DNA of 36,939 nt. Origin: Patescibacteria group bacterium. GTDB taxonomy: Bacteria > Patescibacteriota > Minisyncoccia > Phycocordibacterales > Zambryskibacteraceae. Below are positions 1,120-4,509 of the stretch, piece by piece. The notes below the pieces were generated by a model that worked only from the letters and a program-made list of their open reading frames with translations, did no database searches and was not told the origin of the DNA. The stretch covers positions 1 through 36,939 of the forward strand of contig SCSN01000004.1 of NCBI GenBank assembly GCA_004322205.1, read 5' to 3'. The stretch's first letter is position 1; the number at the start of each line of letters is the position of its first letter. Made by a program: the position numbers and the translations under genes.

Positions 1120-1491
1120 ATGGGACTAGACCTGACCTTGCTGCCCCTCCGGGGACCGCAACAGATGGGCGACACTTCGGTTCTCTGCCATGATCGTTTG
1201 AGCTTCGATCGAGACTACGAGATCTTCGGTCAACTCACGGATGTTGGCGAGGGCAACAAGCCGACAATCAAGGCGAACTCGATCCCGCCGCAGATGTGGG
1301 TCGAGACGTACGAGGACGAGGGCATCAAACGACGCCGCGACGACAAGTACGGCACCGAGCTGACGTTCGTCTACGCCGAGCGGCTCAAGAAGCTAAAGGT
1401 GTCGGACGACGCGTCGGCCAAGAACAAGGCGATCAAGGCCTTCGTCGAGGCGTTACCGAACGACACGCCCATCCTCCTGCTCTGGCGGTGA
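1120..1491 (+). CDS. Hypothetical protein (123 aa)
   Basis: SD AGAAAGGAG, TTGACT-17-TAAGCT promoter-like site upstream, terminator downstream, strong GC3 bias. Confidence 0.85.
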   Translation: MGLDLTLLPLRGPQQMGDTSVLCHDRLSFDRDYEIFGQLTDVGEGNKPTIKANSIPPQMWVETYEDEGIKRRRDDKYGTELTFVYAERLKKLKVSDDASAKNKAIKAFVEALPNDTPILLLWR

Positions 1492-1556: not shown

Positions 1557-1599
1557 CACAAAAAATTTCTATACTAATTTTACTTGTCGCCGTCAAAAA

Positions 1600-1870
1600 A
1601 CTTGGAAGCCCAAGCGAGGGCGCGGCGGAAGGGGGGTGTGGGGGGAATTCCGCCGCGCCCGAGCGTCCCGCCGGAGCGAAGCGGAGGCGGTCAGTCAGGG
1701 TTCTCCGCAAAATGGGTTCTGACTTTTTCAAACAAACACCACAATTCAAAACTTTTCAACTTTTTCGCTGGGGACAAGACCGCATGCTCGCCGCTCTTCG
1801 GCCCGAAAGATTAACGGTGCTCCCTGTTTCGCCACGCGAGCCCAGGTGGGTTCGCTTTTCGTTTTGAAAA
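1600..1870. repeat. GC-rich palindromic island-edge element containing tail copy 2 (1691-1744, minus strand, LWCLFEKVRTHFAENPD*)
   Basis: GGGCGCGGCGGAA/TTCCGCCGCGCCC inverted repeat; ACGCGAGC...GGTTCGCT motif shared with ~36856-36880. Confidence 0.6.
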
Positions 1871-1871
1871 A

Positions 1872-2231
1872 TCACTTCTCGCTCCTCTTTTTATCAAATA
1901 ATACTTTGTAGCCGGCGAATTCCCTCGCAAGCATCCTCCCCACAACGGCAGTGTCGGGGGACGGTCCGAATTCGGTGCTCCAACCCCAGAGCTTGATTGT
2001 CTTTGCAATATGATTGAGAAGAATCTTACCGCCGCCCAGTGGAAAAATTTTTACATTCGGATCGGTCACCATAATTTCCTTTTCAAATTTTGCAAGAATA
2101 TCCCTATGGAAAGAAGAATCTGTGTCTGCGCGAAGAAAAAGAGTTCGTTTCCGGGAATCGTCAGTTACTTGAATCAAAAGATACTTCCGCCCCGGGCCTC
2201 TTATTGCCACAACGGGAATTTTAGATAGCAT
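1872..2231 (-). CDS. Janus/Ocnus (PHPT1-like) phosphohistidine phosphatase homolog
   Basis: Motifs IP-V-I...KYLLI-V, LR-x7-H-DI, LGGGKI, IKLWGWSTEFGP and F-GY-V match human PHPT1 in order and spacing. Confidence 0.8.
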   Translation of the reverse strand: MLSKIPVVAIRGPGRKYLLIQVTDDSRKRTLFLRADTDSSFHRDILAKFEKEIMVTDPNVKIFPLGGGKILLNHIAKTIKLWGWSTEFGPSPDTAVVGRMLAREFAGYKVLFDKKRSEK

Positions 2232-2234
2232 ACT

Positions 2235-3227
2235 TTACTTCTGCCAATGCGATTCGATATAAGAGTTGACTTCGCTTACCTTGAGGGGGGTAGTGGTATT
2301 GCCGGTGCGAATGTAGAACTCCTCCTCCCCGTTGGCGCGTACATAAGCCGGTTTCGGAGACGGCACCACCTCGATAAGACAGATATTCTTCTCCTCAATT
2401 CGCTCAAAAGATAGGTCAACGTACTGACGGAATTCCGCGCCGATAGTTGTCTTAAAAGCCTGATTGAAGTGATTCTCAAACCCGTCCTTATCCTTACGGA
2501 TAAGCGTTTTGATGTCATCTTCGAGTCCGGCAATACCACCGTTGTCAGAAACACCGACAATAAGGTTGCCGCCGTCAGAGTTGAGAAAAGCGGCAATGGT
2601 TTTCATGACCGAGCGCTCGAGGTCCTTATTGACTGCTTTGCGTTTGGTATCCCAGCGAAACGTTTGCTTGAACTCCAGTCGGCGGTTCTCGCCCTCGAGA
2701 ATCAAATCGAGAATGGAAAACTTTTTGCTCTCCGGCGGTTTGCGGCGGATTGCAAGATCAACTGTGTCCTTGACAATATTGGCGTAAATCTCCGCATTTT
2801 CAACACTTCTGATGCAGAGTGGCCTTTCCGAGACCAAAGTGTGAACAACAATTGTGCCGTAGTTAAGGAAAAATTCGAGAGGCGAGCGCTTGTATTCAAC
2901 GGAGGAGACATTCTTTAGCATGATGGAGTTCTCGCGATTGAACATCATACCCCAGCGGTGGACAATTTCTTTTTCCTTGATGCGATACTCCTCGCTGTGC
3001 CAGCGCAGAAACACCCCGAGGGTGACGAGCAATTGGAGAATTGAGGCGGCAATGACGAGAAAAATATCGTAGCGGATGAGCCTGCCGATAAAAGTTTGTC
3101 TGTAAAGCTGCTCGTAGTTGGCAATAAACGAAATGGCAAATAGAACGATGCTGATACCGACCTCCACTCCAATAATTCGGCGGATCAGGACGAGCGGACT
3201 CTGCCGTATCACCACAGGGTATCGCAT
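2235..3227 (-). CDS. Membrane protein: 2 TM + bacterial PH (bPH_2) domain + Schlafen/AlbA_2 domain
   Basis: EYRI...IVHRWG...I-L-NV-SV...LNYGTIVVHT (bPH_2); GENRRLEFKQT, IAAFLNSDGG-LIVGVSDNG, FYIRTGNTT (AlbA_2). Confidence 0.88.
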   Translation of the reverse strand: MRYPVVIRQSPLVLIRRIIGVEVGISIVLFAISFIANYEQLYRQTFIGRLIRYDIFLVIAASILQLLVTLGVFLRWHSEEYRIKEKEIVHRWGMMFNRENSIMLKNVSSVEYKRSPLEFFLNYGTIVVHTLVSERPLCIRSVENAEIYANIVKDTVDLAIRRKPPESKKFSILDLILEGENRRLEFKQTFRWDTKRKAVNKDLERSVMKTIAAFLNSDGGNLIVGVSDNGGIAGLEDDIKTLIRKDKDGFENHFNQAFKTTIGAEFRQYVDLSFERIEEKNICLIEVVPSPKPAYVRANGEEEFYIRTGNTTTPLKVSEVNSYIESHWQK

Positions 3228-3325: not shown

Positions 3326-4315
3326 CTAGCCGCGGCGCAGAGCTAAATGAACAAGATGATCCAGAAAGTCAGGAAAAGACAGCTCTGCCACTTCCAGAGC
3401 CTTTGGAAGAAGTGATTTGGGCGTCAGGCCGGGTAGGGCGTTGGCCTCGATGAGATAGACCCCCCGCTTGGGGTGGATGATGAAATCGGCGTTGGAATAG
3501 TGCCGCAGTCCGAGCGCCCGGTGAACCTTCATCGCCCAATTCTGAATTTGCTCTTTTTCCTCACGAGAAAATTTGCTGGGACAGATTTTTTCCGTTTCCC
3601 CGACATATTTGGACTGGTAATCAAAAAAGTGTTTCCCCGGCGGCCGCACCACTTCTACTGGAAAAAGCGAATAAAGACTGCGGTCGGTGGCACTCTCGAC
3701 GACACTTGCCGTTGCCTCCCGTCCCGGAATATATTCCTCGATAAGCACATGCCCGCCGTGGCGGAAAGCTTCTTCGATCCCTAGCGCAAATTCAGGAAAA
3801 GTTCGAGCAACAGAAATACCAATGGAAGAGCCGCCGAAGAGCGGTTTAACAATTGAGGGCTGGGGAAAGGTCTTGAAGAGCTCGAGGGCGTTGCGGTGAG
3901 TGTTTGCAGAATGCGGCAAGACGGCGGAAACTGGCGTCTTGATCCCGTGATTTTCAAAAATCTGCTTAGACCGAGCTTTGTTCATTGAAAGCGCCGCCGA
4001 GAGCGCCCTTGAGCCGGTATAAGGAATCCCAAAATACTCGAGCTGGGTCTGGACTTTGCCGTCCTCGCCGTAGGCGCCGTGCAGAGCGTTGACTACCAAA
4101 TCCGCCTCGCGAAGTGCCCGCTCCGGCAAGAGAGTCACACCCCGAACATGCCAATCGCCGTCTTGGGAAATAAAAATGTCGAGCGGGACATACTTTTCCG
4201 GCAGATGCCGCAAAACTTGTGCCCCGCTCTGAAGCGAAACCTCGTATTCAGGAGAGGGGCCGCCGCGCAGCACTCCGACGCGGAGCTTGCCGCGGTTCAA
4301 GACATCGGTTGACAT
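3326..4315 (-). CDS. ddl: D-alanine--D-alanine ligase
   Basis: GGPSPEYEVSL, LHGAYGEDG, GSSIG, FDYQSKY, EANALPG; start set at ATG 4315 (MSTDV). Confidence 0.95.
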   Translation of the reverse strand: MSTDVLNRGKLRVGVLRGGPSPEYEVSLQSGAQVLRHLPEKYVPLDIFISQDGDWHVRGVTLLPERALREADLVVNALHGAYGEDGKVQTQLEYFGIPYTGSRALSAALSMNKARSKQIFENHGIKTPVSAVLPHSANTHRNALELFKTFPQPSIVKPLFGGSSIGISVARTFPEFALGIEEAFRHGGHVLIEEYIPGREATASVVESATDRSLYSLFPVEVVRPPGKHFFDYQSKYVGETEKICPSKFSREEKEQIQNWAMKVHRALGLRHYSNADFIIHPKRGVYLIEANALPGLTPKSLLPKALEVAELSFPDFLDHLVHLALRRG

Positions 4316-4341
4316 AACTTCATTGTATAAAAGCAAACTGT

Positions 4342-4509
4342 AAAACGAAAGCCGCCGAGGTGATTCGGCGGCCGGCAGACCTGGCAAGCGCTGGGATGAT
4401 CGCGGCAGAGGGACATTTACTCAATGAGAAATGTCTACTGCTGGTCTAACCTCCTTTCTTAGCGACCATGAGGGTTTCCATCGAGGGGTGTATCCAGCGC
4501 TTGCCTCTA
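4342..4509 (-). ncRNA. Unknown structured small RNA candidate 1
   Basis: TTGCGC-16-TAAAAT promoter (4542-4515); 12-bp closing stem 4494-4505/4383-4394; internal hairpins; terminator 4372-4342. Confidence 0.6.

Follow-up and report, generated by a model that had tools for sequence, protein, structure and literature searches.

Genomic setting

The window analysed here is a 36,939-nucleotide stretch of contig SCSN01000004.1 (GCA_004322205.1), from a Patescibacteria group bacterium of the Zambryskibacteraceae. A gene of the PHPT1/Janus/Ocnus family, hereafter the Ocnus gene, lies close to its start, among the following features:

185-1009 and 1120-1491, plus strand: two ORFs in a low-GC stretch, of 274 and 123 amino acids, with no family match
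1588..1744, strand not assigned: GC-rich hairpin repeat of dispersed type, within the spacer that follows the Ocnus gene, marking the edge of a variable interval
1600..1615, minus strand: hairpin plus T run resembling a terminator, 257 nt past the Ocnus stop codon (a consensus match only)
1872..2231, minus strand: PHPT1/Janus/Ocnus-family ORF, 119 amino acids, ATG start, frame intact
2235..3227, minus strand: bPH_2-AlbA_2 gene, 330 amino acids, with N-terminal hydrophobic segments, a bPH_2 domain and then a Schlafen AlbA_2 domain
3326..4387, minus strand: D-alanine-D-alanine ligase gene ddl (Dala_Dala_lig_C, E 2.2e-35; Dala_Dala_lig_N, E 1.8e-22)

The contig is truly bacterial. Pfam identifies its other genes as those for Ddl, UvrC, UvrA, UvrB, TGT, an FKBP and a LOG-like protein, and it carries three tRNAs. 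The genome assembly totals 667,355 bases over 18 contigs, with completeness scored at 100% and contamination at 0.42%, and 0.67 Mb is a size typical of the candidate phyla radiation. Contigs from two runs of one groundwater metagenome study, one of which may be the source of the assembly, bridge the junction between the Ocnus and bPH_2-AlbA_2 genes with 0 differing letters.

Ddl heads a co-directional row that continues with the bPH_2-AlbA_2 gene (SLFN_AlbA_2, E 1.1e-21; bPH_2, E 2.3e-10) and the Ocnus gene. The stop codon of the second gene lies 3 nt ahead of the Ocnus ATG, and this short spacer indicates that the two are probably co-transcribed. Full-length copies of the bPH_2-AlbA_2 gene, 60-69% identical, occur in 15 of 36 same-family genomes, with a 16th match being partial, and the gene follows Ddl in all five loci examined. 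It is present without a PF05005 (Ocnus) match in three examined loci, those of relatives G003, G007 and G010. Across five loci compared (L002, L003, L004, L022 and L023), no conserved gene neighbourhood was found. Over its AlbA_2 part, the neighbouring protein, which is membrane-anchored, also weakly matches a pAgo model of PADLOC (E 0.001) and matches a PHROG annotated as 'DNA helicase' (E 1.2e-9).

The Ocnus gene is accessory rather than core and sits in a variable interval. Among genomes of the same taxonomic family, the stretch downstream of the bPH_2-AlbA_2 gene differs; in relatives it is closed off by a tRNA-Ala pair, followed by a NUDIX gene and pgi. Here, the NUDIX gene and pgi lie at the start of a separate contig (C15), so the first 3.3 kb of the window represent one side of the variable interval. 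The repeat at its edge reaches a contig depth of 6291 in a metagenome run against 179 in its flanks (~35 times), and further, partial copies occur inside contigs C5 and C15 and at, or close to, the ends of C2, C7, C12, C14 and C17; high depth and copies at contig ends suggest that the repeat breaks the assembly. The first kilobase of the window has a GC content of 0.397, against about 0.50 elsewhere. Neither ORF in this stretch matched NCBIfam, PHROGs or PADLOC at E <= 0.01, and in Pfam the 274-residue product had sub-threshold matches only (E >= 0.086) and the 123-residue product none. Two relatives, G002 and G028, carry Ocnus copies in the same interval, between tRNA-Ala and the NUDIX gene and in another position and orientation. 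These copies are 27-28% identical to the window protein, whereas the adjacent AlbA_2 genes are 64-69% identical.

Family membership and fold

Homology of the 119-residue protein to the PHPT1 family is secure. Its single Pfam-A family is Ocnus (PF05005; E 1.5e-16, 60.9 bits, against a curated gathering cut-off of 23 bits), with residues 2-109 spanning profile positions 1-108 of 108, and a six-frame search of the genome recovered the same ORF at 60.3 bits. With E values up to 1, Pfam returned nothing besides Ocnus and, in particular, no His_Phos_1 (PF00300). The protein alone is a weak query against PDB sequences (phmmer, human PHPT1 at E 0.12), and a profile of 39 homologs retrieves human PHPT1 at E 3.9e-30 over the whole profile.

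Structural comparison agrees. An AlphaFold2 model built from the 39-homolog alignment is very confident (mean pLDDT 93.5, pTM 0.86), and the top five chains in a Foldseek search of the PDB are all human PHPT1 (E 2e-9 to 4e-8; TM 0.78-0.88, rmsd 1.7-2.7 A over 113-119 columns), after which the next match falls to E 0.07. Against the PHPT1 crystal structures, Foldseek gives TM 0.82-0.88 and rmsd 1.7-2.0 A over 114-115 columns. The ESM Atlas holds an identical sequence, whose Atlas model has a TM of 0.87 to a chordate PHPT1 cluster. An initial sequence-only reading of this DNA had identified a PHPT1/Janus homolog and named an Ocnus HMM match and structural superposition on PHPT1 as its tests; both came out in its favour.

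Active-site residues

The residues that we take to form the phosphate pocket of human PHPT1 (Lys21, Arg45, Arg78 and Ser94, with the GGG loop) have counterparts in the window protein at K16, R34, K69, S85 and G66-G67-G68, with a conservative change to Lys at the position of Arg78. Pairwise HMMER alignment to human PHPT1 (2ai6_A) equates R34 with R45, H42 with the catalytic H53, GGGK69 with GGGR78, and S85 with S94; the profile alignment likewise places H42 on His53 and equates K16 with K21. Numbers follow 2ai6_A, which has natural numbering; comparison of aligned ranges shows 2hw4_A to be offset from it by 19. All five equivalences had been proposed from the sequence and are borne out by the two kinds of alignment, as are the spacings, which are identical in both proteins (8 from R to H, 16 from R/K to S), and the motifs, with GGG at 66-68 and the G-S--[YF]GP signature as G83-W-S85-T-E-F88-G89-P90. 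In the alignment of 39 homologs, whose mean column identity is 26%, H42, G66, G67 and S85 never vary, and conservation reaches 90% or more at K16, R34, G68 and G89.

The human His102 position is occupied by T94 (MAFFT and profile) or D93 (pairwise) and by no histidine in either case, in keeping with the sequence-only reading, which had reported this position as not conserved. Early mutagenesis found His102 important for human PHPT1, according to the available text of PMC11277029. The corresponding column is not conserved across the 39 sequences and is Arg in many homologs with a GxEPxR motif, which suggests that His102 characterises the animal branch rather than the whole family. The window protein thus carries every testable defining feature of the PHPT1/Janus/Ocnus family apart from an equivalent of His102.

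Distribution

Bacterial members of the family are sparse and patchy but recurrent, and the gene is not unique to this genome. PF05005 was found in two of 36 other genomes of the same taxonomic family (34 had no match), in none of 24 genomes from other families of the same order and in one of 400 genomes sampled evenly across the phylum. Wider sampling recovered it in 3/200 genomes of the class around a Candidatus Saccharibacteria MAG and in 9/250 genomes of the phylum around an Acidobacteria MAG (seven above the cut-off), with none in 14 named control genomes. Relatives came from named records of three Saccharibacteria MAGs, one Acidobacteria MAG and one Bryobacterales MAG. Two of the Saccharibacteria MAG copies are interrupted, one by a frameshift after the GGG (L023:4001-4331) and one by stops near the N-terminus (L022:4001-4285); both MAGs also carry a second, intact copy.

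An exhaustive HMMER search of 1.84 billion representatives returned 111 proteins at E <= 0.001, the query included, of which one besides the query reached 1e-10; the best match was 37% identical. A word-index search of 5.8 billion proteins found only the query itself. Because strong matches are so few and at most 37% identical, we regard the window protein as an isolated branch of a recurrent family.

Existing resources already record bacterial members: the protein database tags the window protein with PF05005, and an ESM Atlas cluster named Janus/Ocnus is 53% bacterial. The available text of PMC4389004, PMC7948535 and PMC11277029 treats PHPT1 as a eukaryotic or mammalian enzyme, and a literature search of limited scope returned no paper on a bacterial PHPT1-family protein. 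The claim that the family is known mainly from eukaryotes therefore holds for its characterised members, which are all eukaryotic, but overstates its rarity in bacteria, given the genome counts and the Atlas cluster.

Phylogeny

We inferred trees from 114 domain rows and 116 columns, leaving out P0109 (a 26-residue match) and the near-duplicates P0112-P0114, and labelled groups by motif (C-terminal [DE]GY; GxEPxR) rather than by taxonomy. Of the 28 sequences with the eukaryote-type C-terminal [DE]GY, the careful IQ-TREE run places 27 in a clade of 40 rows (support 97/93). The window protein falls outside it, in a large polytomy among many short sequences lacking the motif; four tree rows come from bacterial genomes, and others are metagenomic. 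Recent transfer from a eukaryote finds no support. The phylogeny of homologs that the sequence-only reading had called for thus separates the window protein from the eukaryote-type clade, but leaves its place relative to other bacterial copies within the polytomy. The description 'eukaryote-like' is overstated in view of this tree position, and the sequence has no [DE]GY motif.

The G002 and G028 copies pair with support of 100/92. In an approximately unbiased (AU) test, a clade of these two with the window protein was not rejected (p 0.584), and the tree constrained to contain it was 9.5 log-likelihood units better than the quick free tree. That quick tree had set the window protein far from G002 and G028, and we dropped the independent acquisition within the taxonomic family that it implied after the AU test. 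Two histories stand: a single old acquisition followed by fast divergence and many losses, or repeated insertion at one hot spot.

Proposed function and candidate substrates

We favour, with a probability of roughly 0.6, the reading that the gene encodes a stand-alone bacterial PHPT1-family P-N phosphatase, carried as an accessory gene, with the genome's lone GAF-HisKA-HATPase kinase as the simplest candidate substrate. By analogy with the human enzyme, phosphohistidine or other P-N phosphatase activity (EC 3.9.1.3) is likely: the enzyme would hydrolyse P-N phosphoryl bonds, above all that of phosphohistidine. K16, R34, K69, S85 and the GGG loop would hold the phosphate, and H42 may serve as the general base for activating a water molecule, without a phospho-enzyme intermediate, as has been proposed for His53 of human PHPT1 (PMC11277029). 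The same source, in its available text, reports that human PHPT1 dephosphorylates the bacterial kinase CheA in vitro.

Candidate substrates in the genome are few. The assembly encodes one HisKA protein, a soluble 467-residue GAF-HisKA-HATPase on contig C15 (L006:451-1854), and our inventory of its phosphohistidine proteins returned zero for NDK, PEP-utilizers, PTS-HPr and Hpt. The kinase is thus alone among the usual phosphohistidine proteins, which makes it the simplest candidate. The two genes are not linked; the window's contig has no HisKA match, in agreement with the earlier observation that no histidine kinase is present in the window. Counting against the kinase as substrate, most relatives with kinases lack the phosphatase family (34 of 36 without PF05005).

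Receiver domains were sought in the assembled genome by Pfam, by a profile of ten relatives' regulators and by tblastn, and none was found, whereas 29 of 30 relatives have one. Among ten loci from relatives, the two that hold the pilT start (L017 and L018) have the regulator gene immediately ahead of it. Here, 115 nt separate the start of pilT from the edge of contig C1, with stops in all three forward frames, so the missing receiver domain may reflect either a gap in the assembly or genuine loss. An orphan kinase without a response regulator was considered as a rationale for the phosphatase and dropped for this reason.

Alternative explanations

Retention of the fold and chemistry with another substrate, such as phospholysine, small phosphoramidates, or nucleotide-linked phosphoryl or phosphotyrosine groups, rather than a two-component kinase, is unlikely overall but credible. 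PHPT1 can dephosphorylate polylysine and histone H1 that have been phosphorylated chemically (PMC4389004, PMC11277029), and the available text of a 2026 report describes activity of Drosophila Ocnus on a phosphotyrosine peptide (PMC13602238). Metagenomic members of the family are fused to other domains, including two linked to nucleotide enzymes (Tmk-Ocnus, P0054; NudC-like NUDIX-Ocnus, P0015) and an Ocnus-ankyrin protein (P0040). The fusions and the reported phosphotyrosine activity make substrates other than phosphohistidine on the kinase quite possible. The G002 and G028 copies, moreover, adjoin a NUDIX gene. However, that gene occurs in five same-family genomes (G000, G002, G003, G007 and G028), two of which (G003 and G007) have no PF05005 match, and it matches the fused algal NUDIX domain at E 0.023 only, so the adjacency may be due to chance. 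The alternative activities, furthermore, have so far been tied to no bacterial pathway.

A role in conflict or host interaction appears very improbable; the gene would act against the phosphohistidine signalling (two-component or PTS) of a host or competitor, if the bacterium is an episymbiont, or belong to a mobile or defence island. The patchy distribution is consistent with it, as are the variable interval, ended by tRNA-Ala in relatives and bordered by the dispersed repeat here, the low GC of the first kilobase, and distant ESM Atlas phage clusters (TM 0.56-0.63). Divergence would also be very fast (27-28% identity against 64-69% for AlbA_2) if the three copies are orthologs. Against it, the sequence shows neither a signal peptide nor a neighbour associated with secretion. 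The protein also had no match in PHROGs, PADLOC or NCBIfam and none among BFVD structures at E <= 0.001, and tblastn found none in a phage collection (searched with the window protein and P0012) or a plasmid collection.

We give still less credence to the idea that the gene was acquired horizontally and is now decaying or without function. The broken Saccharibacteria MAG copies, the absence from most relatives and the lack of a near relative among 5.8 billion proteins would fit such decay, but the frame is intact with all core residues kept, the model is very confident, and the gene is closely packed against a conserved one, with 3 nt between them. The view that eukaryotic DNA contaminates the assembly, or that the gene came recently from a eukaryote, draws on the eukaryotic origin of all characterised members and is contradicted by the data, since the gene lies between bacterial genes on a 36.9-kb contig of a genome with 0.42% contamination, and the protein falls outside the eukaryote-type clade with best matches at 37% identity or less.

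Comparison with known systems

Human PHPT1 (14 kDa; PDB 2hw4, 2nmm and 2ai6), Drosophila Ocnus/Janus and Caenorhabditis elegans PHIP-1 belong to the same PF05005 family and length class as the window protein. With human PHPT1 it shares 25-27% identity, the fold, the catalytic His, the equivalents of Lys21, Arg45 and Ser94, the GGG and G-x-S-x-x-[FY]-G-P motifs and their spacing; it differs in having Lys for Arg78, no His102 equivalent, no C-terminal [DE]GY and a bacterial host. A PHPT1 partner such as NDPK has no known counterpart here, NDK not being found in the genome. The GxEPxR-type proteins of Saccharibacteria and Acidobacteria MAGs are also stand-alone (~110-120 amino acids), some in very small genomes, with the same core residues and the same patchy distribution. 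They differ from the window protein in carrying FGxEPDR in place of FGPSPDT, at 29-34% identity, and the relative position of the two types lies within the tree polytomy.

What is known of how bacteria reverse phosphohistidine concerns mainly SixA and the phosphatase activity of the kinases themselves. The fold and mechanism of SixA, whose catalytic His becomes phosphorylated, are unrelated to those of PHPT1. With the window protein it shares a presumed role only, that of dephosphorylating protein phosphohistidine, and the absence of any His_Phos_1 match there agrees with the initial view that the two are unrelated. SixA is the characterised bacterial protein phosphohistidine phosphatase in the available text of PMC7948535.

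If the favoured reading is true, bacterial signalling would include a second, unrelated class of phosphohistidine phosphatase. The protein is small and lends itself to expression, and its source genome of 0.67 Mb encodes one histidine kinase; it would offer a simple system for substrate choice in the family, as well as an outgroup for tracing where the eukaryotic enzyme came from. Its value is limited by the fact that bacterial presence of the family can already be read from databases, and by a gene context that points to no specific pathway. A broader proposal, which we consider rather improbable, is that the protein would be a first case of a PHPT1-type phosphatase at work in bacterial signalling, a fast-evolving accessory enzyme of ultra-small bacteria of this radiation, kept in one variable genomic interval and erasing phosphohistidine on a lone kinase (as a phosphate sink) or on two-component and PTS proteins of a host, and that eukaryotic PHPT1 descended from a wide radiation outside eukaryotes.

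The genome's only His_Phos_1 (SixA-superfamily) domain is an insert in isoleucyl-tRNA synthetase (IleRS), encoded on the minus strand of contig C5 (L008:46-3252) and bearing an RHG motif. His_Phos_1 was likewise found within open frames of 973-1329 amino acids in all 21 genomes searched in the order.
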